This document shows positions 5,301 through 34,689 of a stretch of DNA of 64,000 bases, piece by piece. Each line of letters starts with the position of its first letter. The stretch's first letter is position 1. This DNA comes from Perna viridis (lineage: Eukaryota), in contig CM074521.1 of the NCBI GenBank assembly GCA_037379345.1, positions 186,001 to 250,000 on the forward strand, written 5' to 3'. The notes below the pieces were generated by a model. It was not told where the DNA came from. It ran no database searches and saw only the letters and a list, made by a program, of their open reading frames with translations. The translations under genes were made by a program, and so were the position numbers.

Positions 5301-6419
5301 ACTTCAATCATCCTTTAACATTGTTGTCAAGTTAAGGGATCCATATACATTCATATTATGTCTTTGGTTAGAAATACAATAAAACATTTGTAGCATTTAA
5401 TGAGCATGTGCATTATACTAAATCAACTCTAAAACATCGATTTAGCATAGTAGCAATGATGGATGCTTGTTGTTCATTGAATAACACAAATCATTCTTGT
5501 GATACTGATGATTATGACATTGATTACTTGCCAGCATAAATAGATAATATAACATCTCAAAAAAGACGTCTATTACCGGACAGGAAACAGTTTTCAATTA
5601 AGTCTGAAGTGTAAAAGGGTGATGGGTAGACCGGTCTGAAGTTGGAGTACAGTTCACTATTCACTATTGAAAAGTGAATAAAAACTAGTGTACTATTCAT
5701 TATTCGAACCTACATGAAACATCAGACAGGTCATTAAGTAGATATCTACTTCAAGACTAGCTAGATAAATATTTTCAAGATTATGAAATGAACAAGTCGT
5801 TAATATTTCAACGGTATCATTTATGATACTAGGTACACATGCTACAGATAAAATACACTCGGGGGCTCGGGGGAACTCCAATATTTCTTTGACCTCTTAT
5901 ATAAGGAGTGTTCCCTTGATTATGATACACTACTAGGACACATTTATTGACATACATGTATCATATTTTTCCCCACCTATTCGCATATTTGCAAGCTGGA
6001 AATGGAATATTAAGGAAGTGCCCCCAACTCCCACACCGAACAAATGAAAGATAAAATTATAACAATCATATTAATATATTAATGTTACAATACTTACAAT
6101 TAATATATAGCAAAATCAATATTTATTACATTTGAAAGTAAAAATTATCACGATGAAAAATGAAAAAAAAGAGAGAGGTTTAATTAATGATTTTGCATCT
6201 GCATCTACAACCACGTTCAATGAAGTGTGACTGATTTAACTCTCCACATAAAATAATAAAAGAATGAATAGACGAAGTCTGGCAAGCAGTTCATATACAT
6301 TAAGCACAAACAATCGTTATTTTAGCTGTGGGGTGGACACCAAGACGTGATTTTTACGCTGTTGCCGTACGTACGCAGCATGTCTTAACATTCCGTTCCC
6401 GTCAAAAATATGACAGTAT

Positions 6420-7010
6420 TTAGTAATATATTTATTCAGCAAAATACATATGTCATTTAATACAAAACAACTTTATATCTGACAGGATCTGGAAACAAGC
6501 CTCAAGGATTTTACAAGTCCGTCTCCTGCGAAATTGACAACAATATAATACAAAGATTACATGCTCTTAATACATGTAACATAATTTAAACTGTTAACAC
6601 ATCGTGGAAAAGGAGATGGTGAAGAGTTCAATTCGGAAAAAAATGAAATTAATCAAGTTGCAAGTCAATTAATAATTAATAATTAATAATTAATTAGAAT
6701 AAATTTCCGCACCTTGATAAAAACTGCTTATTTTGATCGTCGGTCATCTGATCAGAACCAAATAGTAAACTATTAGTATTTAACATAACTGGTAAATTTA
6801 TGGAAAATAGAGTCTCTGCGAAGTTCTCGATATCTTTCACATTGTAATAAGAAATGAGATATTGATTCACTTCTACCGCAAACGCAATTCGGTGAATCCA
6901 CTAGGTTGCGGGAAAAAAGATTCTTTCACAGTCTAGCATGTAAAATCTGTCCAATTCTTGATCCGCTATGATAATAGGCAGCATTGATATTACTATAACA
7001 ATCATCAATG
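6420..7010 (-). mobile_element. 3' fragment of a LINE (C-terminal Cys/His region plus 3' UTR)
   Basis: Minus strand reads RIGQILHARL...NLFSRNLVDSPNCVCGRSESISHFLLQCERYRELR, the CxC..E...H...C motif typical of the C-terminus of LINE ORF2 proteins. Confidence 0.75.
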
Positions 7011-8139
7011 AGGAAATACTGCAAAAGAAGCAAAAATACAAAATGTACTATTTTGTTTTGGAAAAATACTTGCGATTTAAAACAATACATGTCAGGAATT
7101 GAAAAACAAATACATTGTAAATATAGAGTGTTTATTAGCTAAATAAAAATTCTACAAGTTCTTCTCGCAGATCCGGTCCTGATTTCTGTAAAAGAAAACA
7201 AAGGTTACTATTACTCAGACAAAAAAAAAAAGCCCAAATGTTTCCTGAAATTTCTAACGCAAGAAAAAGACAAAGTAATATAACACTGTATCAAATGATA
7301 TTACTGCTAAGAAACAACTTCAGAGATATGTAATAGGCGTCATAATTGTAATCCTAAAGTTTTGGAATCTTAATTTCACACTAAAACAAAGAATGACTCT
7401 TACATTTCCTGGTATATTTATGTTATTCAAAAAATGAAGTGCTTTAGCTGTTGAAATAACAAATACTCCAGTCTCCCGCTGAAGTCCTATGTTCTAACCT
7501 CTGAAAGAATCAGTACACATCAAATGATAAAGTGTATAGATGTCCAAAAATTCCGGGTACAATTTCTGACTTCGAAATAGTATATTCAACGAAACTTTCT
7601 TCACTCATTTCGTACGTGTAAATCTAATTTTCGTAAGAAAAAAGTCTTTTCATTCAAACCGCCTTATCCCTGCTGTTCGTAAATACAATGGAATTCATCA
7701 TGACATGCATACAATGAAACGATATCACAAAAGCTTATTAATTTGATGTACAGAAATACAATCATATTCTTGCTTGTGTACTGTGCATTTTCCCATGGTA
7801 ATAGTTACCTTTGGACTATCAAATACTGCACGAGTCTCGCTCTACTTTTTCTTTATAACGTCTTATAATGTCTTATAATACAAGTTATAGCTAAAGATAA
7901 TCACTAAGTGAGAAATGCACACCCTCTTCCTCATTTGGTAAAATGCAACGTTTGACCTCCATTTTGATTCGGATCAAAATCAAAAATAGAAGGCGCACAT
8001 TGTGAATATGAGAAGTGTCGTCCAATTACATTCGGTGGTGTAGGAAGAGTAACGGATTAGAGGTGTTATTCTTCTGTGCAACGGAATGAAAGAAATAGAA
8101 AGTACAGACGGAAGAAAGGACAGACAGGCGGAATAAAAT

Positions 8140-8430
8140 TCAATTTTGTGAGACAAAAGTCTATTTTGTGTCACAAAATTCGCTTACTATATCCACTGAG
8201 AGACCTTCTTACAAAATCGTGATGAGAGAATTCATTTACATATCTAAAGGATTATGTAAATTAATTGCATACAAAATTGACTTTTGTCTCACAAAAGTGA
8301 ATTTTGTGTCACAGAATCGAATTTTGTGACACATAATTGAACTTTGTGACACAGAATTGACTTTTGTGACACAGAATTGAAAATTTATAATGTTATTTTT
8401 GTTGAACAAAATTCACTTTTGTCTGTACAA
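8140..8430. repeat. Short ~20-bp tandem array (AATTTTGTGACACAGAATTG-like) in an intron
   Basis: About 6 consecutive 20-bp units at 8270-8382, plus dispersed units at 8140-8180 and 8395-8430. Confidence 0.8.
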
Positions 8431-10469
8431 AACCACAAGAGTCCCATTCGACACCCTGTACGGACACCCCCATCACTCATAAACGAACCCTTATCAGGCT
8501 GGGATTCATATGGAGCTGCCACGGCGTACGTAATTTATTTTTTTTACTAAAGTCTCTTTATCTGAAGTCATGGATTCGCCCCAACGTAATGTAGATATTA
8601 GATATTAAATGTACCCATATAATACGTTCAAAAAGTAGTATAAGTACCTCATTACTTTCATTGCTTTTTGTTTTTCACTTTCGCTGATCAAATGCATTGG
8701 ATCAGCAATAAAAATTCGTCGTTTGATGAAATCAGTGACATAGAATAAATAAATAAGTGATTCCTGTTCGGAAAAAAAAACATTTAGATTGCTGCTACAT
8801 ATTATATTCTCAATATAATTCTGATACATTCTAAATGTCATGCAACATTGATGCCAACAGACAATAACAGTATAATGACTTGAATACGGATGAGACTTAG
8901 TATCCGTTTAAAACGGCAGTCTTGCTGAGGTTTTTTTTTACTCGTGCCGAATTCGTATTTTGTTTTTATTTCTAGTCAATCCACTTTAATTTTCTTCATC
9001 CTTATTATCATGATGTTTGATGTGTGTAGGCCTCGGTCATGATACGTGTCTCCCCCACCTATGATACGTTTCTTTCTCACTAATGATCCTGATAGTAATG
9101 CGACGAACAAGTAGTTATGTAATGGCAGACGAATGGGGGAATGAAAGAGTGACCTCATATATCACCAATAAATATACTGCCAATATATATTGGTTGCTCA
9201 AATGGAACGATTGCAGTATAAATATGTATATTACAGGAGAAATGACCGTATCGACAGCCATATTTACCAACATTTGCTGTTGTTGTTGCTTTTACCATAA
9301 CCAAAATACTTGATCTATCTTAGAAATCGTCTTTCTAATTTTCCACTTAAAACATTACCATTAAAGACCAATGATCCGACGTATGCACCGGTACGAAAAC
9401 GTATCTTTTGGATAAAATGTCAGTCTTGACATTTAGGTTTTGCCTGTTTTTCCATCTTGGAAAAAACGAATCTAAGAATAAGCACGAACCATCCAAACAT
9501 ACTTTTTCCAATGCCGCACCAATGACCTGAAGGAAAGTAAATTGAAACTCAATGTTGCGTTTCAACTGTTCTGTATCCGTTAATGATATGATTTTTTTCT
9601 CTTTACACCAAAAGTAAAAAAAAAAAAAAACTGAAAATGTGTTAAGTATCTACAAGATAAATGAATCATACAGCATTGTGTATTGCTTAGTTCCATTGTC
9701 TTTTGTTTGACTTGTACAAGTTTCAAGTTGTTGAACATTTGTGTATTGCTACTTATCAGTTTTATTAAAGGCAAATAGTCCTAATATTCTAATAACACTT
9801 TTTCAGTTCACTGGAAGATATTGTTGCGATAAATGCTATTTTGGCTCTAGCATTAGGTTTTGCCTGTTTTTCCATCTAGGAAAAAACGAATATAATAATA
9901 AGCACGAACCATCCAAACATACTTTTTCCAATGCCGAATCCAATTGCCAGCCTTTGGACAACTGTTCTCGTTTGATTATGACTTTGGTGTAATTTAACAA
10001 AACGGACAAATTGCCAACTAAATCCTTGTCGCTATCACTGAAAACTTCTCCCTGAAATACAACAAAACTTATCATTCTTTAATCATACCATTCTGAAATA
10101 AATGTAGTAAGACAAAGTAGGTTAAACAATGAGCAGAGGGTACTGTAGTTATGAAATTGAAGCAGGAAATATCAGGGTTAGGTGTGATATTCTGTGCAGA
10201 CATTCAATACTCGCATTATTATATCTCAAGTGGTACGAAATTTCGACAAAAATATAGCAAAGCGCCAATATTAGGACAATTTTTGGTACATCAAAGTCCT
10301 AATACGTACATGACCTGTACATGAAAACATAAACAAACTCTAAAGTCGAAAATAAAAAAATGAAAATAAAAATTGAATAAAAAATGATAATCACAAAAAA
10401 ATAACATTTATACTAAATTACTCTTTTTCATTATATTATCTTATCCGGCAAATACGTAATAGTCTTGTG

Positions 10470-10471
<2 letters not shown>

Positions 10472-10502
<31 letters not shown>
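10472..10502. repeat. (CA)n microsatellite
   Basis: Pure dinucleotide run. Confidence 0.95.
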
Positions 10503-10504
<2 letters not shown>

Positions 10505-11690
10505 TCATCAATAATGATGATATACCAGTACTACTTACCATACACGTTGAATTATCTTCTTCAGTTCTTGTGTAATTTAAATATTTAGTATAGGCAAATA
10601 TATACGAAGATTTCTAACAAAAAAGAACAAAAAAAAGGGAGAAACTATTAAAATACAGTTGTTGTAACCTGTACAGATACTGTGTGAACGATATAAAGAC
10701 TATAACAGCAAATATTAGTATTTACTTAGTTTCAAGTTAATTTTATCATTGGTAATATACAACAGAGGTAGGTCTAAAATTTATACTCCAATATTTGATT
10801 TGAATATAGTGTACAAATATTCAGTAGAGAGTTCAATTTTAAAACAGCCTGGAATTTGTTTAGAAACAATCATTTTTAACAGCAATTGCTGTAAAAGACC
10901 ACAGTTCTTTAAAAACACGTTTGTTTTAAAAGGGTTAATATATAGTAATAATCCATTATTACAGCTAAGTTCACTTGCAGAACATTTTACTAACTTGTAG
11001 TACTTCATTGTTTATAAACGAGACCGGCTTTCTTGATATTGACTTGTCATCGTAAGTATAAACAGACTGTCTTCAATGACTGCAGCCCAGTCTTAAATCA
11101 AACCATGTGTAAATATACAAACATCTGAGGAGTGCATAGAAATTTTCTAAGAACATAAAGAACAACTTAGTACTAACTAGATGTAATGTGCGTGATTTTT
11201 TTTTATTTTGTACTGGAGTATCCTGTTGGTTCTAAAATACAATATCATTAAATTTTGACATTAGAATATTCCAAATTTGCCAGACGGTATTTTTTCTAAA
11301 TTCAAATAGTTATGCAAGAACAAAAACTTGAGTTTGAAACCCGACCAAAATTCGATTCGTGTACATTCAAAACCAGTGGGTCTTTAATCTTGGATATTAA
11401 TATTCACCATGTTGCAAAGTGAAATAGTTAAATGTAATCATCACTGAATGAACATCAGCGGAATATTACAGCCACTTAACATTTAGGAGAATTTAAAAAA
11501 AAATCAGTGTATAATGTACCTTTATCAACAGTTTCTGTTAGAACATGCATTTATTCTTCTGTCTTGATCATGTTGACCCACATTTCCTGTTTACTATTTA
11601 AACATGTTAGAAGATCCATACAATCCAATGTTGTTTGAAATGCAATTTAGTTTCCATGCAGCAGCACTAACACGAAGCGATCCATATACA

Positions 11691-12450
11691 TGTTATGTCG
11701 TAAATTGTGTGGTCGGGACGGAGAGGTCGAGGGCATGGCATGGCTCCTCGAGATGTCGACTGCCTCCCCGTCCGACACGTTTTTATGAACAGTCACTATA
11801 ATTTTCGAGTGGAGTGACGGTGTTCTCTTGCTATGTCTGGTATGCATGTAGTTTGGTTTTGCGTCCCTGGCCTATCGGACACTGCATGCTTTCGAGGCTG
11901 GCCTGGTATATAAAGATATCAAGTTTTTACTCTTTATTTTCCTGAACGTACACAGTGATGCCAGGACTGGGTTGAGCTCTCTTAAAAACCCAGTATCACG
12001 TGCTGTCGGTCCTGTCTTTATTTACCAATGAAATCTCTTAATTTTATTTAATTTCCAAAGATGAATATACATAACGCCTTAGTATAGGAAACGTTTGGTT
12101 ATGTATATTGCATTTACTCCACCTTACTTTATCTTTTTATGTCTGATACTCTTTTAATTTATTTATCCTTAAACAATGGAAACTATTACCTAAAGCAATT
12201 ATTTTGCTAATCTCTATAAAGTGGCAGCTGTTTACCTAAATTATTAGCAAGACAATTGAGTAGGCACCAAAGAATTCAAACCTATTTAGTCTATCGACAC
12301 AGATTACGTATTATTTAATGTTACAAATATTTCTTTCTTTCGGCTAAATTTACAAATATGTCAAGACATTATCAATTTACTTAAGCTAAAATGTAATTTT
12401 ATTTATTTTTAATTTATGCTGAATCATATAGAATTTTACTGCATCACATA
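11691..12450. repeat. Copy A of a ~0.8-kb direct duplication (partner 16615-17429)
   Basis: Colinear high identity from TATGTCGTAAATTGTGTGG to GCATCACATA; copy A lacks ~55-60 bp present in copy B. Confidence 0.95.
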
Positions 12451-13045
12451 TTCTTGTTGTTCAAAGAAATTGTTCCTGCAGTTTTATTTATTATCTAACA
12501 TTTTCTTTTCATTGTTACTATTAGATTATTCCTGCTGTTCAAGGCTTTATATATAGCCATCTATTTATTCATAATCTTTGCTGAATCATATAAAATTTTA
12601 TGCTGATAAAAGCAATTCTTACAGATTAGAATGTTTCTTTTCTCAATAACTCATGTTTCATTTAAATGTACCATTTAAGTATTTCGCTATACATGTATAT
12701 TTCTACATATTAAGTTGAGTATCTCACTTTTTCGGTAGTTTGCGCGAACCCCAAGACATGCCACGGCGTTTAACTCTCTTTTCTGGAGCAACCCGTATTC
12801 CTGGCAGCTTGTTCCGACCCCAAATTCTACCGTGAGTCATACCCTCGGCTTTTTTTCATATTTAACCTCGCTTTTTAAAACCTTTTAGTGCAACAAGCTT
12901 ACAAGCAGTGTGTATACTCAGTCTACAATTATTTAATTTATAAAAATGTTCCTACATATAAACTTGTATACGATACCATCACGTTACGGGGATCTGCCCC
13001 TTGAGCACTAAACTTAAATACACTTGTTAGCAAGACTACTTAAAT

Positions 13046-15691
13046 TCTTATGATGCATCCTATACTTGTCCTTATGATGCATCCTATACTTGTCCTTATG
13101 ATGCATCCTATACTTGTCCTTATGATGCACCCTATACTTGTCCTTATGATGCATCCTATACTTCAATACTTGTCCTTATGATGCATCCTACACTTGTCCT
13201 TATGATGCACCCTATACTTGTCCTTATGATGCATCCTATACTTGTCCTTATGATGCACCCTATACTTGTCCTTATGATGCATCCTATACTTGTCCTTATG
13301 ATACACCGTATACTTGTCCTTATGATGCATCCTATACTTGTCCTTATGATACACCCTATAGTTGTCCTTATGATGCATCCTATACTTGTCCTTATGATGC
13401 ATCCTATAGTTGTCCTTATGATGCATCCTATACTTGTCCTTATGATGCACCCTATACGTGTCCTTATGATGCATCCTATACTTGTTCTTATGATGCATCC
13501 TATACTTGTCCTTATGATGCATCCTATACTTGTCCTTATGATGCACCCTATACTGGCCCTTATGATGCATCCTATACTTGTTCCTATGATGCATCCTATA
13601 CTTGTCCTTATGATGCACCCTATACTTGTCCTTATGATGCATCCTATACTTGTCCTTATGATGCACCCTATACTTGTCCTTATGATGCATCCTATACTTG
13701 TTCTTATGGTGCATCCTATACTTGTCCTTATGATGCACCTTATACTTGTCCTTATGATGCACCCTATATTTGTCCTTATGATGCACCCTATACCTGTCCT
13801 TTTGATGCACCCTATACCTGTCCTTATGATGCATCCTATACCTGTCCTTATGATGCATCCTATACTTGTCCTTATGATGCACCCTATACTTGTCCTTATG
13901 ATGCATCCTATACTTGTCCTTATGATGCATCCTATACTTGTCCTTATGATGCATCCTATACTTGTCCTTATGATGCACCCTATACGTGTCCTTATGATGC
14001 ATCCTATACTTGTCCTTATGATGCACCCTATACTTGTCCTTATGATGCACCCTATACTTGTCCTTATGATGCACCCTATACCTGTCCTTATGATGCATCC
14101 TATACTTGTCCTTATGATGCATCCTATACTTCAATACTTGTCCTTATGATGCATCCTATACTTGTCCTTATTATGCATCCTATACTTGTCCTTATGATGC
14201 AACCTATACTTGTCCTTATGATGCACCCTATACTTGTCCTTATGATGCATCCTATACTTGTTCTTATGATGCATCCTATACTTGTCCTTATGATGCACCC
14301 TATACTTGTCCTTATGATGCATCCTATACTTGTCCTTATGATGCACCCTATACCTGTCCTTATGATGCATCCTATACTTCAATACTTGTCCTTATGATAC
14401 ATCCTATACCTGTCCTTATGATGCATCCTATACTTGTCCTTATGATGCATCCTATACTTGTCCTTATGATGCATCCTATACCTGTCCTTATGATGCATCC
14501 TATACTTCAATACTTGTCCTTATGATGCATCCTATACTTGTCCTGATGATGCATCCTATACTTGTCCTTATGATGCATCCTATACTTGTCCTTATGATGC
14601 ACCCTATACTTGTCCTTATGATGCATCCTATACTTGTTCTTATGATGCATCCTATACTTGTCCTTATGATGCACCCTATACTTGTCCTTATGATGCATCC
14701 TATACTTGTCCTTATGATGCACCCTATACCTGTCCTTATGATGCATCCTATACTTCAATACTTGTCCTTATGATGCATCCTATACTTCAATACTTGTCCT
14801 TATGATACATCCTATACCTGTCCTTATGATGCATCCTATACTTGTCCTTATGATGCATCCTATACCTGTCCTTATTATGCATCCTATACTTGTCCTTATG
14901 ATACATCCTATACCTGTCCTTATGATGCATCCTATACTTGTCCTTATGATGCATCCTATACCTGTCCTTATGATGCATCCTATACTTGTCCTTATGATGC
15001 ATCCTATACTTGTCCTTATGATGCATCCTATACCTGTCCTTATGATGCATCCTATACTTCAATACTTGTCCTTATGATACATCCTATACCTGTCCTTATG
15101 ATGCATCCTATACTTGTCCTTATGATGCATCCTATACCTGTCCTTATGATGCATTCTATACTTGTCCTTATGATGCATCCTATACCTGTCCTTATAATGC
15201 ATCCTTTATTTGTCCTTATGATGCATCCTATACCTGTCCTTATGATGCATCGTATACTTGTCCTTATGATGCACCCTATACCTGTCCTTATGATGCACCC
15301 TATACTTGTCCTTATGATGCACCCTATACCTGTCCTTATGATGCATCCTATACTTCAATGCTTGTCCTTATGATGCATCCTATACTTGTCCTTATGATGC
15401 ATCCTATACCTGTCCTTATGATGCATCCTATACTTCAATACTTGTCCTTATGATACATCCTATACCTGTCCTTATGATGCATCCTATACTTGTCCTTATG
15501 ATGCATCCTATACTTGTCCTTATGATGCATTCTATACTTGTCCTTATGATGCACCCTATACCTGTCCTTATGATGCATCCTTTACTTGTCCTTATGATGC
15601 ACCCTATACTTGTCGTTATGATGCATCCTTTACTTGTCCTTATGATGCACCCTATACCTGTCCTTATGATGCATCCTATATTGGTCCTCAT
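13046..15691. repeat. 24-bp minisatellite (CTTATGATGCATCCTATACTTGTC)n, roughly 105-110 units
   Basis: Continuous 24-bp period with variant units (CAC/CAT, CCT/CTT) and a recurrent 8-bp insertion (ATACTTCA). Confidence 0.99.
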
Positions 15692-16614
15692 GGCAGAAAA
15701 TCTCTACTAAATCAATATTTAACTCAACATTTACATAGCAACCGCTGTAGCAACAATGTTTTTACTTGAACCCTTTTATGCACATTTTCACACTGTCCCT
15801 ATGGGACAAGTGCCTCTACCTTGTAGGTATCTGCTTCTTATTTATAATGATACATTTAAAAGAACTTAACATGATTATTTGTTTTATTCTTGATGTTTAA
15901 GTTACATTATTTTACTAAGTTATTTATAAGACACACATTATTTCACTGCCAGTTCTCACTAAAACAAAAGGATTATTCCGAATTTCTTGAGTTATCGCCC
16001 TTCAGTTATATGAATTTGAACTTAATCTTTATAAATTTAACATTAGTGTGCAATTTACTATTTCGCATCTATACTTTTTGACTCTTTTATATATATGTAT
16101 CTTATTCATTTTAAAATATGCAAATTAATATCTATTCTACAGCAGTAATTGCTTTTGAAATGTTACTGAAATTTTAGCTTTAAAACACAATTTAAAAGTT
16201 ACATTAATGTTTATGAATTTCAAAATTTACAACTTTAACTTGTTTAGTTCTTGCCTTATGAAGTGAAATAAAATTAAGTTTATCACTTACTGGTTTTTAA
16301 GATCACGTGCATTAAATACAACATAGAGAACACAAAACAACATATTAACATAATGTATGGAAAACATATATACAAAATGGTACATATCAGCAAATTGTCC
16401 AAAATAAAAGATAATCCGTATTTCATCGGCAAATTCCTTCGGTTTTTACTTCTTTTACGCGACACATTACCTGTAAAATTCAAAGTTCAGAAATAAAATA
16501 ACTGCATTTTGTAATGCCATAGTCCAAAAATTAACACAAAAAAAAACTTTTCAATCTCTCCACCGCTTACAAATGAAACAGATACCAGGAGATCTTCCTC
16601 TCTTCTGCACAATC

Positions 16615-17429
16615 TGCTATGTCGTAAATTGTGTGGTCGGAACGGAGAGGTCGAGGGCATGGCATGGCTCCTCGAGATGTCGACTGCCTCCCCGTCCGAC
16701 ACGTTTTTATGAACTCCATCTTTTCGAGTGACATATTTTGTTGTTTGTTATTTGGGGAGAACTCGCTCGTGGTAGAGTCTTGGTGGAGCGGTGGTGTTTT
16801 CTTGCTATGACTGGTATGCATGTAGTTTGGTTTTGTGTCCCTGGCCCATTGGACACTGCATGCTTTCGAGGCTGGCCTGGTATATAAAGATATCAAGTTT
16901 GTACTCTTTATTGTCCTGAACGTACACAGTAATACCAGGGCTGGGTTGAGCTCTCTTAAAAACCCAGTATCACGTGCTGTCGGACCTGTCTTTATTTACC
17001 AATGAAATCTCTTAATTTTATTTAATTTCCAAAGATGAATATACATAACGCCTTAGTATAGGAAACGTTTGGTTATGTAATATTACGTTTACTCCAACTT
17101 ACTTTATCTTTTTATGTCTGATACTCTTTTAATTTATTTATCCTTAAACAATGGAAACTACTACCTAAAGCAATTAAATATATTTTGCTAATCTCTATAA
17201 AGTGTCAGTTGTTTACCTAAATTATTAGCAAGACAATTGAGCAGGCACCAAAGAATTCAAACCTATTTAGTCTATCGTCACTGATTACGTATTATTTAAT
17301 GTTACAAATATTACTTTCTTTCGGCTAAATTTACAAATATGTCCAGACATTATCAATTTACTTAGCTAAAATGCAATTTTATTTATTTTAATTTATGCTG
17401 AATCATATAGAATTTTATTGCATCACATA
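16615..17429. repeat. Copy B of the ~0.8-kb direct duplication; overlaps a degenerate minus-strand exon (~16915-16586)
   Basis: See copy A. The minus strand has TTCAG|GACAATAAAGAG ... CTCCTG|GTATCT, with two in-frame stops in that frame. Confidence 0.9.
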
Positions 17430-18085
17430 CGTATAAGTAAAACAAAATGCTCTGCAGGTCACAGCTTGATAAGATTGTAGATGACGAAATCTGAACGATT
17501 GTAAAATTGTAAACACAACTTTCAAAATTCATACTGCTCTTCATACAATTTTTGAATATAGTCTGGCAAGAATGGAAACTGCTAACTTACATGCAGCTTC
17601 AAAATATTAAAAGAAAATGTTTAATGCTTATCCCTTTTTACTTAACTAAAGTTCAAAATTCCCTGAAAAGCGTTTCTTCATGGTATTGTAGAGATATCTG
17701 CAATTTTAGTCAAGTTATTGTCACCGGGTAAACATAAATTTGGCTCCTTTTTGTGTCAAAATGTCATGCCAGAAGAGTAATCAGCCCTAAAACGATATAA
17801 GCCTGACTGGTGGCATGGCACATTGTGATGCAGTTTCATGTAACTGTTTAAAACTTTATCAATTATTTGTTAAGTTGTAAAAGAAAACTAAGTGTCTATG
17901 GACTACGGCAACGATACAGGCGAAAACAATTTACTATCCCCAAAAGTTTATTGTTATAAGGTATGTGATTTGATCGATCGGAGTATGTGTTAATCGGTTA
18001 GTATTTAAGAGCCTAGTCACAATGAAATGTTTCAATAAAATACTCAACGAATGGCAACATTATACGATCTCATTCGCTTACCGCC

Positions 18086-18290
18086 GCAGTGGCGGATCTA
18101 TAGGGGGTGCAGGGGGTTGGTACATGTACCCCTCTTTTCATCGGAAAGTTTGTCATTTTCTCGTGTAAAATTGACAAAAAATAGCTAGAAATGTCCTAGC
18201 ATGTCCCTTTTAATTGCAAATTTGTCATGTTTATGTGTAAACTTGCCCCAAAATCGCAAATAACGTCCCAGCACCCCCTATTTCTCAGGA
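18086..18290. repeat. GC-tipped short interspersed repeat (GGCGGATC...GGGG type), related to 49676-49903
   Basis: Starts GTGGCGGATCTATAGGGGGTGCAGGGGG; the same style of end occurs at 49676 (GGCGGATCCAGG...GAATCCGCC). Confidence 0.5.
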
Positions 18291-20339
18291 ACCTTGACCG
18301 GCATCATGAGTGTAAGTATGAGGGCTATATCTTTGTTCCTACAACTCTACATGTACTGTAGTATCCAGTAGAAATATAATTCATTAACACAAAAAATGTA
18401 ATAAAAATTATGGAGGAACTGCGAATTGTAATTTTAATCACCATTTCTACCATAGTAGTAGAATTTGTAAAACATTGAAATTAGATAGGAGACTGAGATC
18501 TCTTTAACAAGAATCCCAAGCTCAAGAGGTACTGGAGTATGAGATCTGCTTTATTGGGTTATTATTACCTTATTGTTCTAGGTTAAGTGATTAGCTGTGG
18601 AGCAAATTGATTCGTCTGTTTCTTTGAATTAATGAAGTATTTCGGGAACAAATTAACGACAGGATATTCATTGAAACATGTGTACAGTGAATCGAACTTT
18701 TTGATACATGTATTAATATATGTAAATTGTATTTTTGTATAAAATAGTACTGCTAAATCCTTGTCACTAGCACCGGAAAGGGACGGAAAAAATAATTCTT
18801 ATCACATGTTGCTGTACATTTACATGTGAGTGATATATGTACATATACAATTCTAGTATGCAATTGGATGCATTTTGAAGAAAAAGAATAGGAAAATGGT
18901 ACATCCGAAACGAGACAATGTAACTTAGACTTTAAAGTTAGTAATTTACAATTACCAAGAATAATCGAATAAATTACAATGGCCACTTGTGATTCTTTTT
19001 CCAGTGTGACACTAAAAGTATTCTAGCATTTTATTTATATGAAACACTGAAGAAAGGATTATGCTTTATAAAGTGTGTCATTATGGATGCAGGGGGATCG
19101 TATATGTTGTAAGTTAGATGAAATTTTATCATAACATTATTATATTTTCTTCTATCAAAATCTGATATATTAATGATAAAATAGACTTCATAATAATTTG
19201 AATTTCAAAGATTCAAAGCAAATACACGATTTGATGTTACTGCTTTTCTATTGAAAATATAGAACACAGTCGAATGTTTATACAAATGCACTGTTAACTA
19301 CATGTGCAGCATTTATTTATCATTTTTCAAACGGTACAACTTTATAATTGTCAATACGAATTAAGTGCACTTCAGTGCGCTCAAAACATTTATTATTGAA
19401 TGTTTGATCCTTAAAAAAATGTGCAACACTAGTTTTGTTTAAATTTATGTATTTCTTTGAACATACCATTACAGATTTCAAATAATATTTTCTGTCTATT
19501 GATCTGCCACCATCACGTCTTTGTACTACTGGAGGAAAGTCTAGATGCCTAGATTAATTAAATAGACAAACATGAGACAAGGACATAGTTTCGGTAATAT
19601 TCGACGGTATAAAATAATAGTGTCCCCATTATGAAGGCATACAATACAAAACGTTCAAGTCATACAGAAAAATGTCTTCTAATATAATCAAAGTATTCAT
19701 GTACTGAATCAATTTATATCGCTCATTTGAATTTTCACGCCTCAAATAATATCGTCAAATTGCAAAAATATGGGATAAAAGCAGGGATAAAAGAAAAATA
19801 CACGAATCGAATTCAAACGTATATGTATTGTTCTAAATAGTAAATATTGAACTCTTTGGTTTTTTTTTTAAATTCACCATTCTGATTAATCAGGACATTC
19901 AATAAACACACAACAAAATTCGCGATGTATCGTAGCGTGCAATGAACCAAATTGCGAAAAATATTTAGGTTCGATGATGGTTTACATGAAATACCTAAGT
20001 GAATTAATACAAAACATCCAACATACTGCATGATTGAACTACAAACTACTAGTTGGCCTTTCCCAGTTTATAAATTTTCAATTCGAAATTCAATTTAAAG
20101 ATCTTTAGGTCGAATTAGTCTGTCAAACAAATCAAACTTAAGCCACAGTCATTTAAATAAACCATGCTATTAGATACAATTCCCTCTCAATTAGCTACAT
20201 TTCCCAGTCGATAAGCTTAATAGCTCAAGTCCTACAAGTTAAAATATAAACAGCTGTGCGTCATGTTAAATTGCCTATTTTCTAGGTAACCAGTTCCAGA
20301 GACATTTACATTAACATAAATACCAAAGTCTTAGAATAC

Positions 20340-20680
20340 TATTTCAACTATTACACTTGCATGCACTTCTAAGGCACAGACCACAGATTTATACCATTCC
20401 TAAGAAATGTATTATCGAAATTCCTGTGACATCGTCTATACGCAAAGTTTCATTTTCATCTCCGGGCTTCCGATGTCGCGCAGTTACCATAAAAAAATAC
20501 ATGATACAGTGGGTGATAGAACAGGGTGGTTTCGGGGGTTCAGCTTCCTTTTTGCTAAAAGTTAAGCAAAACAATGATCGACAAATATTAGCCAGGAACG
20601 AGGAGTGTAGTCCTTGCCTGTCGCCTGGAACCTCTTTCTTTATGTAAGTATCTTGATCGGAACCACTGCCCCCTTTTTGT
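20340..20680 (+). mobile_element. Highly degenerate LINE RT fragment
   Basis: Broken motifs YR-IPVTSSIRKV, QGGF and ERGV*...CLSP occur in RT order. Confidence 0.45.
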
Positions 20681-20682
20681 GG

Positions 20683-21065
20683 AAGAGTAATCAAGGGAAC
20701 CAAGGTTATAGCGGTAATCAAAAGAATGTAATCCAGGGACAAAGACCAGACATGGAAAACAGACATGGAAAACAGACATACACAACAAAGAACATAAAGT
20801 AACTAAAACCACACATACAAAGTAACAAAAGTAAATGAGCAACTCGGACTCTACTTAAACCTGGGAGCATGGACCAGGTGCACCGGTAGGGTAAGCGTCC
20901 TCTGCTTTTCTAGAAACACCCGCCAAGTTGCTCATAAAAAGTCAAGTCCGGGGTAGACAAACGAGGAAAGGAAAACCATGACCCGTTGAATAAATCAGTT
21001 TTCATGGTGCTGATGGATACACCATAACGATCCACGAGTTCATGATGACGACCATAAAACTTCTG
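20683..21065 (-). mobile_element. 3' end of the Penelope-like element (same family as 31390-32808)
   Basis: Reverse complement aligns with ~32440-32808. Confidence 0.9.
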
Positions 21066-21699
21066 TAGTGGAAACTAGTATATGGGTCCGCCAGGCCCTG
21101 CATGAAATTTCTGAAAGACAACCCTTCCAATTGCCAATGCATTTCTTTTCTCATTTTTTTAGCGATGACTACAAGTATTCAAAATCTCGGAGGGTTTTTA
21201 TTTCTAGCTAAACATCGAATGGTTTATTATACTTTTAAGAGTATTGTATATGTGCTAACATATTGAATACAGAATAATGAACGATTGGTTTATTATGGTA
21301 AATGTATAAAATTAAACAGGTACAAATGTACTGGAAATGTTAGAGGTAAATTATTTTGTTTTAATTGGATCGTTGTTAATATCAACTAAATTAATCATCA
21401 TATTTAGTTTGTTGTAAAAGTTGTTTATTGGCGTAAATAGTATAGAACTGAAGATGACTAATTCGAAATACCTATAAAGTGGACCAAAACTATTGCAACT
21501 ATCTGCATTTGAAACTTAATGGGGTATGATGGTATGCTGGGACTGTTTTCCTGTGGTATAAGATAATTTCAGATGCTAACAGGCACTTAAACCCAAAAGC
21601 TCTGGCAACTGCTATATCAGTCCTGATCTTCTATCTAAATTGATAAAAAGTGATACTCCTGGTTGTTTCCGAATCTTCATCGTTCATGTCGAGGAAAGT

Positions 21700-23300
21700 G
21701 TAAAAACCTACTTACAAATAATTTGAACTCTAATGTTGATTCTTTGAAGATTTTCTGTAAACCTCTTGAGCTGTAGGAATAACAATGTAGGAATATCAAT
21801 TAGTCACTAGGTTCGTTGATGCGGTGTTCTCTTTTGGCAGTTATAACAATTTCTATATAATTTGTAGAGTATTTTCATTAATAAAAAATAAATATTAAAG
21901 AGTCATTTGATTTATAATGGTGAATACTGTCCTGAGCACATAACGTTTTGCACGAAGTCGCCAGTGCAATTTCATATTCTGCGATGGATGATATTGAAAT
22001 AATTGAAACAATTAAAATGAACGAGCATTTTTTTATAACTACACGATAACCATATATGTGTTTGAAAAAAAAGAACTATTTGTGGTAAAATGTAAACCAT
22101 CGTGACGATGTCTAATTACTTATATAAGTATAATTTTTTTAAAATTTATATTATGTCGATTAAATTTAATTAGTAGATTATCATCTCCTCACGTCCATAA
22201 AAATGGACAAAAATTTAAAAAAAGGCGGGAATTTCGAAATAAGGAATCTGAGATATTATAGTACGTAAATCTTTTATTATTCCTTGATGACCAAAACAAT
22301 ATTCCTTCTTTTAAACTGAAATGGCTATGGATGTAGGACATATCTAGACTCAAAATAGCTGAAATTAGGCTAGCACATATCTGTCGGAAATAAAAAAGTC
22401 AGAAATAAAATCCTCCCACCGCCGATATTTTTGAAGGTTGGATGAAAACCTACAATCTAAGTTTACTTGGCCTTAATATTAATCAGGTTATTTACACTGC
22501 ATGGTCGTCTATTAATGCTTCGGTTTTCAACGTCTCATAAAGACAATCAACCACGTGAGGCTGTGGTTTTAGTGTCCCAAGATCGAGAGAGAAAATCAAA
22601 TGCTGCTGCTCTACATTAAATCTTTTCTGAAAAAAGACAGTCAATACTTTGCCTTCTATAAAATAAATACTATCAGAAATAATGAAAATAATAACAATTC
22701 TTTGATTTACCCGTTTTTTCTATTGGATTGGGCGTAATTATAATAATTAAGTAAGTAACTATAGCCCAAATTATTTAAAAAAAAAAACAACAAAAAAAAC
22801 TTTTCTACCTGGATTTAAATTTTCGGTTCATTTATAAATTTCTATGGCAAATAATTATCATCATTAGGAAGAGGATTATATAATCCATGTATCACAGATT
22901 TTATTTTAATGTTCATGGGCAAAATAGCTAGCCCTGTTACATGTAAACAAGCATTGTTAAAAGTTCTATCATGTATCCTAAGTGTTTCTTTACGAAAACA
23001 AACTGTGTTCATAATAAAGCAAATCAAGCCAATGAAAGTGCATTTTAAACTGGTCTCAACAGAAAGTGGACTGAATTTTCCAATCAGTGACAACCGCCTG
23101 AGAAATATCAGGAGAAATTGATAGGGGTCCTCTTTTCTCCGACTTCAATTGAAATATCTGCATCACTGGCAACTATTGCCTGAAAATATAGATAAATCAT
23201 TGAACTTATATTTAAATGTATATGAAAATCATTATGGAATGCATTTATCAAATGTTTCATGACAGGGTAATGTTCAGGTGACTTTCCTTGGCTGAAAAAC
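21700..23300 (-). pseudogene. Ubiquitin-specific protease (peptidase C19)-like relic, interrupted by other repeats
   Basis: Minus strand: SRRKEDPYQFLLIFLRRL (~23145-23090; cf. USP QEDAxEFL), TSLKCTF (~23040), then in one frame CYNCQKRTPHQRT**LIDIPTLLFLQLKRFTENLQRINIRV (~21848-21725; cf. USP CxxC...LPxxLxxxLKRF). Cys and His boxes not found. Confidence 0.55.
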
Positions 23301-23456
23301 ACGAAACTATATGTATATCTTTTTTTAAAAATTAACGAATAGCATTTTCATTTAAAACCGTCTAATTTTTTAAATTAAAATTGAAAATATGATTGAGGGA
23401 GGTACATGTTGTTGTTGAGTTGTAGATAAAGATTTCAGTATTCCCTTACTTTCTAT

Positions 23457-24135
23457 TATCATAATCATCATCATCATTATCACCACCTTCATCGACGTCA
23501 TCGTCTCAATCATCATTATCATAGCCGCCACCGCCGCCGCCACTTTCACCTAAACAAACATTACTGTCATCATCACCATAATCACCACCGCTGCCTTTAT
23601 CGACGTCATCACCACCATCATCATTATCAATGTCGCCGCCAACTTCATTGACATCCTCATCACTGCAATCATTGTCGTCGCCTCCACCGCCTTCATCAAC
23701 ATCGTCACAACATCATCATTACTATCGTTGCAGCCGCTGTCATTGACACTAATATCATCATCATCATTATCATCATCAATTTCTCTTTTTTTCTACTTCT
23801 TCTTCTTCTTCTTCGTCTTCTTCTTCTTCTTCCTCCTCTTCTCCGCCACCGCCATTATTGTGATCACCATCATTTTCATCATCATCACCGCTGCTGCCCC
23901 AGTATTCATCGTCATTTACATCATCGCCTTTGTCACAATCATTATCCAAATCATTATCATTGTTACTTTCGCAAACATCATCGTCATCATTGCCACCATC
24001 ATTGTCATCATCATCATCATCATCATCATTTTCGCCTCTGTCAGATTCATTGTCACCATTATCATCATCATCTTCTTCTTTTTCTATATTTATATTCTTA
24101 TCATTATTTCTATCACTATCATTATCATCGTTATG
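23457..24135. repeat. Degenerate (CAT/CAC/CTT)n trinucleotide low-complexity tract
   Basis: Visible 3-bp periodicity; gives poly-I/poly-S ORFs on + and D/E/N-rich ORFs on -. Confidence 0.9.
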
Positions 24136-24301
24136 AACATTTTTTACCTCAAACTTCCTTTCACCGCAAGTTTTCTTTCGACTAATCTTTCTGTTCTGTT
24201 TTGATTTTACATTTCTTTTATTTCGATACTGGATCAAGAATTCTCCTGAATTATACTTCCGAGTTCTCTTCAGTGGCCTATCGAGATTAACAACATCATG
24301 A

Positions 24302-25689
24302 TTATTTGCTGGTCTTGTTTTTCTTTCCTGTCTTTTTTGTGGTGTCTTTTATATGTAGTAATAAACAAAGCTCCGTGAGAGTTTTTGAATTTATTTTTAG
24401 ACATTGGGTCCTTGATAATTTCTTTACTACAATTTTAAGTTGGTCTGCACTTAATTTTTTCTTCTTCATTCCTTTTAACTGGGAAAAGAAATTATAACGA
24501 GAAAAAAGTTATGTTTAAGACGCACATAAAAATATTAGGTACAGAAACTGCGTAACCATTTTCTACATCCATCCTTTGAACGCTTTACTTACATTTAATA
24601 GACCTAATTCAGAGTGCCAAAACGTATGGGAGGTTGCTAATACAACGGCTAGACAAACAATTATCACTAAAGCACAATTTTCAATACTTAGCAAAACGCC
24701 TATCAGGGTGCAGCATGAAGCAACCGTTGTTAATATCTACATGAAAAAGTAAATGCTTTCCAAGGCACAGCTTGATAAACCGCAGTGGTCAAACCAAGAA
24801 CAGTCGAGGAAAATATACAAGCGAACTTCTGTGCTATGACTATCCAAAAAGGATTACATGTATAGAGCAAGCACATGTATTGTACACTATTAACTAAACA
24901 TTGTTTTAGATTATTCGTACTAGTAAAAATACCTTCGATAAAAGGAACTCTCTCAAATTGCAGGTATAATCAATTCATCGATACCATTACAGTTCCTAAA
25001 ATACAATCATCCGAAAAAATCCATTAAAAATAAGAAAGTTAAGAATAAGAAGTACAATATTCCTCTTAGATATTGCTTTTCTAAGGGCTACACAATATGT
25101 ATAGTAAATAGAGGGCATCTCGGTTGATATAGCATGTACGGGGGACCCAGAGTGTCAATTATGGGAGCTATGGACGTAAACCATTATAACTATGAACACT
25201 TTGCACATAGTGTCATCCCTTAATTAGTCCTATCTTAAGGCTACACAGTAGGTATTCCTTTTCTCCTTTTAGGAAAGTGCGTAAAAATACTTGTTTGACG
25301 ATAAAACTCCGAAAAGGAAACAAAAATGGTTATGGATTTCTGTATAATTGACATAATATCATTTCTGTGGGTAAGAACTAATTAACAAGATGTAACGAAG
25401 ATTTTATTGGGCACTAAATTACAAAAATTACATAGAAAAATCCCGAAATCGGAGTAGAATCGTGCTTTTAAAAGAAATGACCAGTTGTTAATTCATATTT
25501 TAAATCGTCGACTCGACATAATACATTACATTGTACATGTATTTAATATTATGATGAAATGATAACTTACCTTGGAATTAATTTGCATGTGATGACACCG
25601 TCCACAAAACATGCATCGGCACTAAGGATTGTCAGTAGCTTTATAAAGGTTCTAGGACTGCGATACCCCGTTGAGGTGTGCTTTGACAT
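24302..25689 (-). pseudogene. Putative small 3-exon gene or pseudogene for a secreted Cys-containing protein
   Basis: Exon 25689-25571 (AAAATG; MSKH...TFIKLLTILSADACFVDGVITCKLIP; GTAAGT donor), exon 24995-24933 (AG/GT bounded), exon 24478-24302 (strong polypyrimidine-CAG acceptor). One extra base in exon 2 is needed for read-through. Confidence 0.35.
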
Positions 25690-28600
25690 TTTTATTTTCT
25701 ACTTTAATCGGATAAGAATGGGCACATAAATTTTACACTTCAGTATTTAAGCAAACTCTTTATTTTGTTATCATGACAGATTACTGCCATCACCTTTAAA
25801 CTCATCTCTTATTATGGAAAGAAAATCTTGTGATATTCATAATCCTTGCAATTGGTGGGTGATAATTACGTAAAAGTCCATAAACTGTATGTGTACCCGG
25901 TCTGAATCTCCACCTAATGTAGTATACATATGAACAACTACAATATATAATAGGAAGACATTTTTTCAAGGTGACACCGTGCAATCACGGCTTGGTATCA
26001 TAGATCAGCCTTGGTCTCGGCAAATCATTAAATTAATCTGACCTGATAAAGTGCAATCGTGGATAAAAGAAAATATCAATATTCATATTACCTGGGATAC
26101 CGACGGTGACTGTAGGTCCACCCCCACCATAATATTCACAACTCCAAAACATCACCCATCACGCTTAGGGGTAACTACTCTGTGAAATATATTATTCGAC
26201 CTATGCACAGTATATTCTAGGTTAAAAATATATAATTCACAAAGACAAAAAAGTGATTTATTTTCTATGTGACGATTTGTTTTTGTTTTTTGTTTAATTT
26301 TTTTTAATGAAGAGTAAATATAGAGTGAAAACTTCATAACGATGTAAAAACTGTGAAAAACGCAAAGCAATTTTGTTGTTATCTGCACTCTAACGCCCTG
26401 GACCACTTCATATTCTTTTAATGAACAAGATTGACACATATCCAATATGGACACACATGTTGAACATAGTCAATTATTCAGCAGCAATATATATATAAGC
26501 ACAAAAACGTACTTTCAAAAATTTGTAACCCACATTAATATTATTGAAGTTCAGTCGCCAAAACGAAGATTTGCGACTTGTGTTTTTTTTTATTTTTCTT
26601 CTTGTGAACGTGAAGATGTCCGAGCGATGACTCGACGACCGTTTATTTGATTCATACCAAAGTAAAAAATCAAGCATACTTAGTGCATGCAATTTATGAA
26701 TTTATGAAAAAGCCACCAAAAGAAAACCCGAAAAATGAGAAAACAATCTATAAAATTACTGGAACTATTTAGTTACAAGTGTGAAAGTAAATATAAATAG
26801 CAACTATTGACTTGCTGCCATCACAGGCGTCAACACTTTCTTTAATAAAGCCGCATTTTATTCAAAATGGCCATCAAATCGGCAAAATGCCAACATTGTT
26901 TGATTAAGATGAAATTTAATTTCCAGGTTTAACGTGAACACGGCCTTCTAAATTCAATATCGGCTTCGTAGTTAGGTTGATTCCGACTATTTGCAGGTTT
27001 TGCCAACTTTTGTGTTTTGCATGCATGCAAACGCAGTATCACTTGTTTCATTTTGTCTTTTAGTTGCTTCGTTAATGTTTATGCAGTTATATTGAAGACA
27101 AGTAATATCCGTATTGATTACGATTAAATTATGACTATATTTAGTATAATATACAATAATATAAACCGACTTTAGAACAAAAGTATTTTTAAGCAGTTGT
27201 ACTGATAAAAATGATCACATATTCTAGTAGACATGGATTGTGAGCCAGTCCGTTAGATTGAAAATCTTTCTTTTCCTTGTTTGTTTCTTTCTTTGTCTTT
27301 TTTGATAAATACATGTATTTTTTTCCATTCTTACTGATTGTCTTTTTACCAGAAACATATTTTTGCTCAGTGGAAATAAATGCTACGTAGCACGCATAAT
27401 GTGCATGTACTCCATTTTATATTACGTAAACTCTCTTGTTTATTTTCCATGTAAACAACGTCAGCTCTAGAGATGCAACTTCAAAATAAGATGCAGTGCC
27501 TTAGAATATTCAGTAGGCTAATTTTAACAGGAATGATTGGCAAACGAATATATCAAGCGCTACGTTACACGTCAAAAGTCATATTATACAGACATGTGCC
27601 ATGTGGATAGATAACGTTCACATAGCCACAATATCAACGGTGAACATAATCGTTTTCTATCGTAGATTTATTTGTCAAATGTAAATGTGTCATTGTCTAT
27701 GTAGTCATAAATTTATATGATTAAATTCATTTGCCATTAATTATTAATTACAAATACGTAAAAAATCATGGATAAATACGTAATATGCCGACAGCAAATA
27801 CAGAAAAAAGACAACTTTCTTCTGGAATCATTTATCTCCCGTATAAACCAAACATATGTCTTAAGTGAACAAAAGTTAGGGTTTAAAGTTGATTTGGTTT
27901 CCACATCCATCCATCCATCATAAAATTTTCTTACCATCGACGGTACCATCGTTACCACCATCAAAAATGTTATCAAACTTTAAAGTTATGAAAAATGAAT
28001 AGTAAACTAGTTTACTATTCACTTTTCAATAGTGAATAATGTCCGGTCATTATTTTCTAGTTTCTAAGACTCTTCGGGAATATTTGGCAAATAGCGACAA
28101 ATGTAGTGATCGTAGGTATCTGAAGTCACCAGGTGATACGGGAGGTCAATGTAGGGAACATCAACACCGCTCTCGACAATCACTATCCCTTGTTTTAAGT
28201 AACTAATTATGAGGCACCTGTTTTGGTTATTTTATGATCTTTGTTGTATGTGTCTGTTTTCCGTGTCTGGTTTTTGTCCCTAGATTACATTCTTTTGATC
28301 ACGCTAGAATGAATCTTTGTTCCATTGATTACTCTTTCAATACTTTTAATGTTTATGTGTCCACGATGTGCAAATAGTCATGGCTTCGTAGGTCACAAAT
28401 TTCAGTTGCAAACGAAATATTTATTTTATTTTAACCTTTTAAGTGGACAAGAAGAAACGAAATATAAATTTTATTTAAACCTTATAAGAGGACAAAAAGA
28501 GTGTGCAATTCCACTGTTTTGTATTAAAAATTTGAAGTACATGCGATACTATCATATAATAAGAAAATCAGAATTTTTTAATTATCTCAATAAACAAAAA

Positions 28601-29540
28601 ATAGAAAAGAATTAATTGGCGTCATTGAAAATATACAGTAATTTTCAATGCATTTTTAATTTTTTTCCTGCTTCAAGAAATGTTCAAAGAAAAGTTGGAG
28701 GAAGGTTGCATGCATTGACAAGTGTACTTTTGCGTATCTCTTCGCTGTTCCACATGCTGTTTAAACAACCTTAACCGCCTTGAAAAAAATATAGCCTCCG
28801 CTGTATTGTTCATTTGCAGCATAGCTTTTCTTAGACAGGGAAGGCATTCATATTTTGAATTTTTGGAAAGCTGTCACCTGCGTTTATGCCCCAAGTTATG
28901 TGTAAAATTATCCCACCATCCGTGGAGAATTGTTAAAATTCGGGATTTTATATATATTCTGAAAAATTACCCGCTTAATTTTAAAATGATATAGCCGGAG
29001 CAGCTTGGAAAGTTAAAAGTGAGGGTTAAAAAATGTTGGTGTTCGCTTCTATAGCAATGTATATGCCTACACCATATTACTTTATATGGTAGAATGAAAT
29101 TTTCTACTACCTTTTCCTCTTGTTTAGTTCGTCTGGTTAGTTGTAAGGAACACTGACAGACATTACATTCCAACCATATTTTGGGGTCCATTTAAACTGA
29201 AACCTTACCGTGGGATTTCTTAAAGGATCTACCGGAAAATTGATACAGCTCTGAAATTGTATACACTTCCCATTTTAGCCATATAGCATGCCAAAACGCC
29301 CATTCTCTATTGTTCCCATCCCCATTCCCTACAGAAAATTCTCAATATAAAAATTCCCATCCCCATAGAATCCCATGGCTTTTTTCATCAAGTATTTTCT
29401 TTGTACTTAATACTTTAACATTTAAAGTGTTATTTTGAATATAAATTGATATTCCCGACTTTCGATATATGCAGTTATCTAACCTGAATCGAGTTATCGT
29501 CCTTGACAGTAGGTATATCTACTTCCGTTATCGACCAAGA

Positions 29541-34284: not shown

Positions 34285-34689
34285 ATAATGCATTATACAA
34301 TAAAATTCAACATTTATTACATTTAAACATGTTGGAAGAAATTCTTTTAAAAAAAAGTTGTGATCAGAATTTGAATAGATGCGATAACAATAAGGTCCTG
34401 CATCATGTACATGTACACAAGTTCTGTTGCGGTGGTTTTGAATGAATATTCTAATTGGTTGATTTTCAATAATATTTTCTACAAATCATTGAACCTATTG
34501 ATTATGATATTACTATATCATTGCATATATATTTACATATTAAGGTCCTAAACAAGTATTGTTTCTCACTTTTGAGCAGACCAGAATTTCAAAATTGCCA
34601 CCAAAGGAGATCAAAGTTTGTAACTACTTGATTACATGAATAGTACCATAGATTTATACTAAAATAAAGTAATACATTTAAAAGTATAT

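Follow-up and report, generated by a model that had tools for sequence, protein, structure and literature searches.

Introduction

According to the accessible part of PMC2836005, Ginger1 elements are 2.6-7 kb long, have terminal inverted repeats (TIRs) of 40-270 bp with a TGT start, contain introns, and encode a Gypsy-like integrase along with an OTU or a C-terminal Ulp1 domain. The same text reports Ulp1 on Mutator elements of hydra, lancelet and plants and a Trichomonas protein (XP_001314237.1) combining transposase_11 with Peptidase C19, and it treats the role of Ulp1, OTU and C19 on DNA transposons as still only suggested. In the available portions of three further papers, Mutator-like elements (MULEs) are described as making target-site duplications of 8-11 bp and Rehavkus as having a PHD finger (PMC6446971), some Cryptons (CryptonF/S), elements without TIRs, as encoding C48 (PMC3212892), and UCH and Peptidase_C48 as two of the 20 domains stably carried by Helitron-like elements (HLE), UCH almost only by HLE2 (PMC11417382). 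The accessible part of PMC10294476, on bivalve elements, makes no mention of protease cargo, and no report of USP and Ulp1 in one element was found in a literature search whose coverage left out Repbase reports and most subscription journals. Here we describe a stretch of 64,000 nucleotides from Perna viridis (assembly GCA_037379345.1, contig CM074521.1, positions 186,001 to 250,000 of the forward strand), called the window below and numbered from its first letter. An earlier note on this DNA had pointed to relics of an Ulp1-like (C48) and a USP-like (C19) protease, and had suggested a single mobile unit with both domains. Our analysis indicates that both relics probably belong to a single DNA element, now dead, which TIRs bound and which measures ~22.4 kb.

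With MULEs and Rehavkus the locus shares bounding TIRs, an Ulp1 domain as the last one encoded, and a TIR length of 52 bp, MULE TIRs being put at 14-500 bp in the accessible text. It differs from them in that neither a DDE domain nor a PHD finger nor a duplication of 8-11 bp was found, in the position of USP upstream of Ulp1, in its size of 22 kb and in the number of its exon candidates (13 or more). It resembles Ginger1 in its TIRs, its introns, its C-terminal Ulp1 and the CCGG near both ends, whereas the bases inside the CCGG are ACA...TGT, reversed relative to TGT...ACA, the length is 22 kb and no integrase was found. HLE2 elements are like it in carrying both domain types as stable cargo, in their large size and in their hairpin ends, but no RepHel was found here, and the accessible part of PMC11417382 does not place both domains in one family. 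The Trichomonas C19 transposase and the C48 of CryptonF/S show that DNA transposons have carried C19 or C48 before, with one protease each. Because the locus did not match MULE/Rehavkus, Ginger1, Helentron or KDZ (Kyakuja/Dileera/Zisupton) elements on the features that could be tested, it was not assigned to any of them. Most likely, it works like a protease-carrying DNA transposon whose protease add-ons are each known singly and whose pairing is new in the literature searched.

Results

With 28-39% GC per kb the window is AT-rich; it consists of animal DNA with introns and a high density of repeats. Its comparison with itself yielded an inverted pair (5655-5705 and 28041-27990; 52 bp, 90% identity, E=1e-11), which faces inward and encloses both the USP and the Ulp1 relics, so that the earlier statement that no termini were identified is superseded. 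Each member is the only partner of the other in the window, the local score being 81 versus 36-39 in three shuffles, and the segment 27980-28060 folds with -16 kcal/mol (z=-6.6, 0 of 200 shuffles). The pair spans 22,387 bp, of which 5,780 bp are six nested repeats; without those, ~16.6 kb are left. If the repeat accounts for the excess depth of the terminal bin, there are roughly 30-70 copies of the palindrome in the genome, and a second, facing palindrome would lie within 30 kb by chance with a probability of ~0.001-0.002, or 0.02 at 1000 copies (random placement in a genome of at least 0.7 Gb being assumed). CCGG occurs near both ends, on the left ~75 bp outside the repeat. The terminal repeat had no match in viral contigs; in prokaryote genomes one palindromic match was obtained, in a bacterial metagenome-assembled genome.

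The same arrangement could arise if the USP and the Ulp1 relic came from different dead genes or elements, unrelated to each other and adjacent among repeats, with the inverted pair marking the ends of separate elements. We regard this as unlikely. The window is indeed dense in unrelated repeats and holds another inverted pair, of 280 bp, at 55024-55295/58835-59106, and a common strand has a prior of one half; the palindromes, however, have no other partner in the window. The strong hairpins at the ends, and the cargo of HLE2 cited above, would suit a further explanation, in which a Helentron (HLE2) had the locus as its cargo arm, with UCH or Peptidase_C48 in separate open reading frames (ORFs). 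No trace of RepHel or PIF1 and no clear T^T insertion site at the candidate ends was seen, however, and the inverted match of 52 bp is longer than the 11-15 bp usual for the sub-terminal repeats of these elements; a Helentron is in our judgement very improbable.

The Ulp1 exons reported earlier on the minus strand were recovered as five exons (A to D and a last exon). The Peptidase_C48 profile of Pfam matched one exon of 57 aa, exon B, at 9356-9526 (E=0.0017; 18.7 bits, curated cut-off 20.7 bits), and five of the six PDB matches of exon B were to Ulp2/SENP, the best with E=0.024. The His motif agrees at 9/9 positions and is the single match over both window strands, with none in 856 shuffled strands; the motif patterns used here and for USP were written after the sequence had been inspected. 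The candidate Asp, assigned by reading, follows in the next phase-compatible exon, in the order known for C48. Exon C by itself had no Pfam or PDB match, and the C48 clusters found in the Atlas for the relic (0.85-0.87) serve as a lead only. The catalytic motif Q-x4-D-C-G was not found, exon D having no in-frame Cys. The donor of exon A is destroyed, and the reading runs on into a partial copy of exon B. Short broken exons of this kind can escape profile scans, since exon B was lost when scanned inside a frame of 533 residues.

Upstream of exon A, three further candidates extend the chain. Of the exon earlier placed at 11125-10725 only 11146-10995 (candidate W) fits, and candidate Z, truncated at its 5' side by a repeat insertion, heads the chain. 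All intron phases of the eight segments agree, and their 312 codons contain 4 stops versus 21 expected from the intron stop rate. The reading frame ends in two stops, and therefore Ulp1 is its last domain. Judged from exon B and the His motif, the Ulp1 relic is genuine, though weak in profile search.

For the USP-like relic, previously placed at 23145-21725, the exon with the LKRF motif stood, whereas the EDPYQFL segment found no support in Pfam or PDB. The LKRF motif is matched once over both strands of the window and in 2 of the 856 shuffled strands; its exon has two stops in the last 48 codons and is frameshifted upstream. The UCH profile of Pfam covers 21600-21908 with E=0.021 and 14.9 bits, versus a curated cut-off of 23.9. 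An additional His box was found on the minus strand, 2.3 kb downstream of the LKRF motif, and its phase fits the LKRF exon. It agrees with Y-x-L-x-[SAG]-x3-H-x-G-x(4,5)-G-H-Y at 8/9 positions and spans a 455-bp GT-AG intron (19467/19011); spliced matches of this kind occurred anywhere in 40 of 1064 shuffled 64-kb strands, and one was present on the plus strand of the window. The V-L-F-Y-x-K motif alone is at chance level (~3 per shuffled strand), as may be said of a motif of the strength of EDPYQFL (~75 per shuffled strand). PDB searches with the USP fragment gave USP18/USP47 in five of nine matches (E 0.68-1.6), the top two being cytochromes c, and four single exons had no match there. The possible finger-region exon was without support in PDB, Pfam or the Atlas.

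The Cys box G-L-x-N-x-G-N-x-C was not found: the 33 spliced matches on the minus strand each have two mismatches and look like chance, and none was seen by eye in the unspliced frames. Intron phases agree along the chain 21860-21716, 19540-19467, 19011-18956, 18811-18569 and 16613-16571, whose 184 codons contain 5 stops versus 12 expected. For both chains the exons were chosen with their translations already known, and because they were hand-picked in this way the stop deficits overstate the significance. The motif tests nevertheless lead us to conclude that the USP relic is genuine, though weak in profile search. Upstream of it, the frameshifted basic and then acidic region may have a SAP/HeH-like look, by reading alone; no meaningful Pfam family was matched. 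That both relics are decayed and co-oriented, as the earlier note had it, was borne out by stops, frameshifts and a lost Cys motif, all on the minus strand. Since no USP Cys box was seen and the Cys motif of Ulp1 is lost, the present copy is taken to be dead and should be inactive.

Between the two chains, the supposed orphan exon at 16915-16586 turned out to be a repeat insertion, because it lies almost wholly within 16615-17429, a copy with 89% identity to the high-depth repeat 11691-12450. The last candidate of the USP chain (16613-16571) is located directly downstream of this insertion. The exon given as ~12899-12729 was upheld as an exon-like segment, 12922-12728, flanked by AG..GT. It had no Pfam match and a depth of ~1.5-2x, and a second variant of the stretch 12724-13030 differs at 12847, 12877 and 12878. 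From the last USP-side donor (16571) to 12922 there are a 24-bp satellite and ~1 kb of non-repeat DNA, and a short G/C-rich hairpin follows the satellite at ~12990-13010 in the minus-strand direction. The two may represent the array of a Helentron-associated element.

A single gene is favoured here, without being demonstrated, because the USP frame passes its domain as far as the donor 18569 (~60 codons further) and the first segments of the Ulp1 chain lie well upstream of the Ulp1 domain. That USP and Ulp1 formed one polypeptide is a possibility that we hold at somewhat below even confidence; two genes within one element are clearly less probable. Unrelated neighbours would explain why the chains have no phase-consistent bridge, but not why a donor closes the USP chain or why a first exon is not visible in the Ulp1 chain, with ~1 kb of non-repeat DNA in between.

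Copy number was judged from contigs of two DNA runs, from different samples, placed on 5200-13030 at 80% likeness (single-copy depth ~110 and 62); the summed contig depth is a rough proxy only and not a copy number. In the two runs the depth is 1.1x over 5200-5461 and rises to 21-22x in the bin with the left repeat. It is 7-34x over 5462-7033, in part from small nested repeats and an end of a long interspersed nuclear element (LINE), 4-6x over 7034-7557 in both runs, and 0.9-1.4x over exons C, A, V and W. A single contig covers 7145-7470 with a depth of 285 versus ~60 for single-copy DNA, with 9 differences and 3 gaps; several close copies thus have the last two Ulp1 exons and lack the inner ones. 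This collapsed multi-copy contig differs from the window inside exon D (7425, 7429 and 7432), and the sister copies of this exon are therefore not identical to that of the window. The gradient would fit a DNA transposon with internally deleted derivatives, and a short segmental duplication would fit as well.

The many short exons, the inner ones being single-copy at 80% identity or more, and the lack of a transposase could also be explained by exons of lineage-specific host USP and SENP paralogues captured by a non-autonomous element in the style of a Pack-MULE and never serving it. No parent gene at 80% identity or more was present in the DNA runs over exons A-C, however, and both domains have diverged strongly from canonical SENP/USP (no PDB match better than E 0.024), so that we consider host capture quite unlikely. 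Copies of proteases borne by elements usually diverge from the canonical enzymes. As to expression, a search of sequencing runs listed no RNA run with the locus. In one raw RNA run, of which 19% was read, exons A, C and D had a depth of 0-0.01, though a single library says little on this point; no splice joint was found for the exons among the best 15 of 131 joint rows of that run. The signal at 9392-9653 in it consists of poly-A/T loose ends.

Several results weigh against a single element. The earlier note had proposed terminal repeats, target-site duplications and transposase domains as checks, and only candidates for the first of these were found: in a blind scan of 213 ORFs of at least 42 aa from 2-31 kb against Pfam, no transposase, integrase, recombinase or Rep/helicase family lay between the repeats. 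The KDZ transposase, which comes with CxC, SAP or SWIM domains, had no such Pfam match either. No target-site duplication was found beside the inverted pair, where a scan gave one 3-bp candidate, and no duplication of 8-11 bp was found for end positions 5570-5661/28036-28134 with 5/6 matching terminal bases, the true ends being uncertain. A C19 profile match had likewise been proposed as a check; the UCH match described above is below the cut-off and on its own at chance level, 16 of the 213 blind ORFs having matched unrelated-looking families at E<=0.1 (best 0.0054). Two junctions between the chains do not keep phase, one from 16571 to 12922 and the other from 12728 to the exon after it. The depth evidence covers 5200-13030 only, with the left end and the Ulp1 side, and some of the depth at the left end stems from small nested repeats. 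Exons A and B had no match among 1.84 billion representatives, and word-based protein searches gave six candidates for exon B and one for the USP fragment, none of which was scored. Of the proposed single unit there thus stand the enclosing pair, the depth step on the left and the multi-copy 3' Ulp1 exons, but not a transposase, a target-site duplication, a second locus or a continuous frame.

Viral contigs contained no match for exon B. When the window's YqaJ ORF was searched as a control, 16 proteins with 34-54% identity were returned, one of them named (Mercenaria, 45%); this name and the types of repeat would suit a bivalve-like host. The blank searches for relatives are thus weak evidence, because animal transposon proteins are sparse in the collection, as the control shows. 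Two metagenome loci were considered as relatives and rejected, since both matched by chance only 17 residues of a frame unrelated to the exon. The only transposase-type family in the ORF scan was THAP, outside the inverted pair, and the element to which it belongs was rejected as the missing transposase on account of this position. That element is a broken DNA transposon at 29513-37024 with THAP (E=0.0016) and DDE_Tnp_4 (E=1e-8) on the plus strand and a convergent YqaJ nuclease ORF (E=3e-10) on the minus strand, interrupted by LINE sequence. Its layout resembles that of ISL2EU elements.

Other repeats and features of the window are as follows. The repeat with TG...CA ends, 760-815 bp long and inserted at TA twice within 5 kb, resembles a solo long terminal repeat (LTR) or a non-autonomous DNA element, and is also present in a run guessed to be RNA. 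The two copies were rejected as paired LTRs of one retroelement, since TA flanks each copy separately and neither a primer-binding nor a purine-rich tract was seen. At least eight 3' fragments of one family (20680-21076, 28220-28340, 30363-30500, 32134-32812, 42658-42811, 43869-44334, 48142-48275 and 53705-54326), 70-94% alike and in both orientations, are LINE-like. The fragment 20680-21076 adjoins a GC-richer stretch (20300-20680), where either strand has open frames, 110-137 codons long, for which there was no Pfam match. A near-perfect palindrome of 92 bp, with 46-bp arms and no spacer, occupies 262-353 within a decayed LINE endonuclease/reverse transcriptase relic on the minus strand (1-1900). 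Between the members of the 280-bp inverted pair mentioned above (82%), an open frame of 307 codons occupies 55529-56452. The fn3 exon found at 60705-61055 (E=3e-7) suggests a large host gene on the plus strand, and diverged internal repeats with units of ~220-290 bp, along with a 64-bp tandem array, occur at 52060-53189 and 61602-62190. Searches for tRNA genes and against Rfam gave no match.

Table 1. Positions of the candidate ends, exon candidates and nested repeats in the window.
Feature	Position	Strand	Remarks
Left TIR candidate, palindromic, 52 bp	5655..5705		3' end in gene orientation
Right TIR candidate	27990..28041		5' end in gene orientation; hairpin with 18-bp stem
Multi-copy terminal segment with last two Ulp1 exons	5650..7500		from depth
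Ulp1 last exon	7132..7185	-	strongest acceptor of the region; two stops at end
Ulp1 exon D	7404..7500	-	Gln and G-V-F-V kept; 1 stop; multi-copy
Ulp1 exon C	8648..8763	-	candidate catalytic Asp (IADPM); strong acceptor, stop-free, phase 0 to 2
Ulp1 exon B	9359..9526	-	catalytic His motif; Pfam C48 and PDB matches
Partial exon B duplicate	9853..9944	-	94.6% identity to 9433-9523
Ulp1 exon A	9938..10051	-	ends at W-x-L-D-like motif; single-copy depth
Exon candidate V	10539..10613	-	acceptor and donor both strong; 0 stops in 25 codons
Exon candidate W	10995..11146	-	AG..GTTAGT; 1 stop in 50 codons; single-copy depth
Exon candidate Z	11520..11690	-	2 stops in 57 codons; donor GTACAT; phase fits next exon
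Exon-like segment, content unassigned by Pfam	12728..12922	-	AG..GTGAG; 2 stops in best frame
Short exon candidate	16571..16613	-	AG..GTAAGC; phase-compatible with preceding donor, but all three frames open
USP C-terminal exon, V-L-F-Y-x-K motif	18569..18811	-	phase-consistent; 3 stops in 80 codons
USP His-box exon (H-x-G-x5-G-H)	18956..19011	-	final Tyr lost
USP exon with His-box lead-in Y-x-L-x-S at its end	19467..19540	-	AG..GT; phase 1 in, 0 out; stop-free
USP LKRF exon	21716..21978	-	CxxC and P-x-x-L-x-L-Q-L-K-R-F; donor GTAAGT
Possible USP finger-region exon	22495..22626	-	sequence reading and strong acceptor
Possible QED-box segment (EDPYQFL)	23000..23179	-	sequence reading; acceptor 23179; frameshifted
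Basic, then strongly acidic (D/E/N-rich) exon-like region	23450..24478	-	strong acceptor 24478; donor 23450
Nested LINE 3' end	6450..7000 (approximate)	-	Pfam zf-RVT E=0.0062 at 6776-6925
High-copy repeat like a miniature inverted-repeat transposable element, 20-bp units	7950..8560 (approximate)		intron between Ulp1 exons C and D; depth 42,000-64,000 versus ~110
Dispersed repeat, copy 2	11691..12450		TG...CA ends, TA flanks; 89% to copy 1; ~50-90x depth
24-bp satellite, 107 units	13047..15692		between the two exon chains
Dispersed repeat, copy 1	16615..17429		TG...CA ends, TA flanks
Nested LINE-like 3' fragment in USP intron	20680..21076	-	89-90% to 32429-32812 and 43952-44324; further, shorter copies in the window

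Discussion

In the element proposed here, an intron-rich gene on the minus strand would have encoded a basic/acidic region, USP (C19), linker exons and Ulp1 (C48) up to the stop, and the inverted pair would form the ends of the element. Movement would presumably have been by cut and paste, with the transposase either deleted from the present copy or supplied in trans, and short derivatives with the left end and the last Ulp1 exons may have been amplified later. By analogy with what USP and Ulp1/SENP enzymes do, the intact product would most likely have acted in the nucleus, where it would strip both modifiers, ubiquitin and SUMO, from its targets, either the transposase or chromatin and repair factors at the element. 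Such deconjugation would stabilise the transposase and ease silencing or repair, and it would shield the element from degradation or silencing. An anti-silencing role may be proposed on these grounds.

A more far-reaching version, which is tentative and which we think rather unlikely in full, is that the locus represents the largest survivor of an undescribed family of intron-rich animal transposons of 15-20 kb. The main cargo of this family would be a basic/acidic chromatin-binding region, USP and a C-terminal Ulp1 in one protein, separate from the transposase and acting in trans as an anti-silencing helper.

As the copy is dead and unclassified, its value is that of a lead, the coordinates of the terminal repeat and the exons being queries for an intact member. 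An element with both USP and Ulp1, if true, would be a testable case for the idea that elements gain from the removal of both ubiquitin and SUMO marks.

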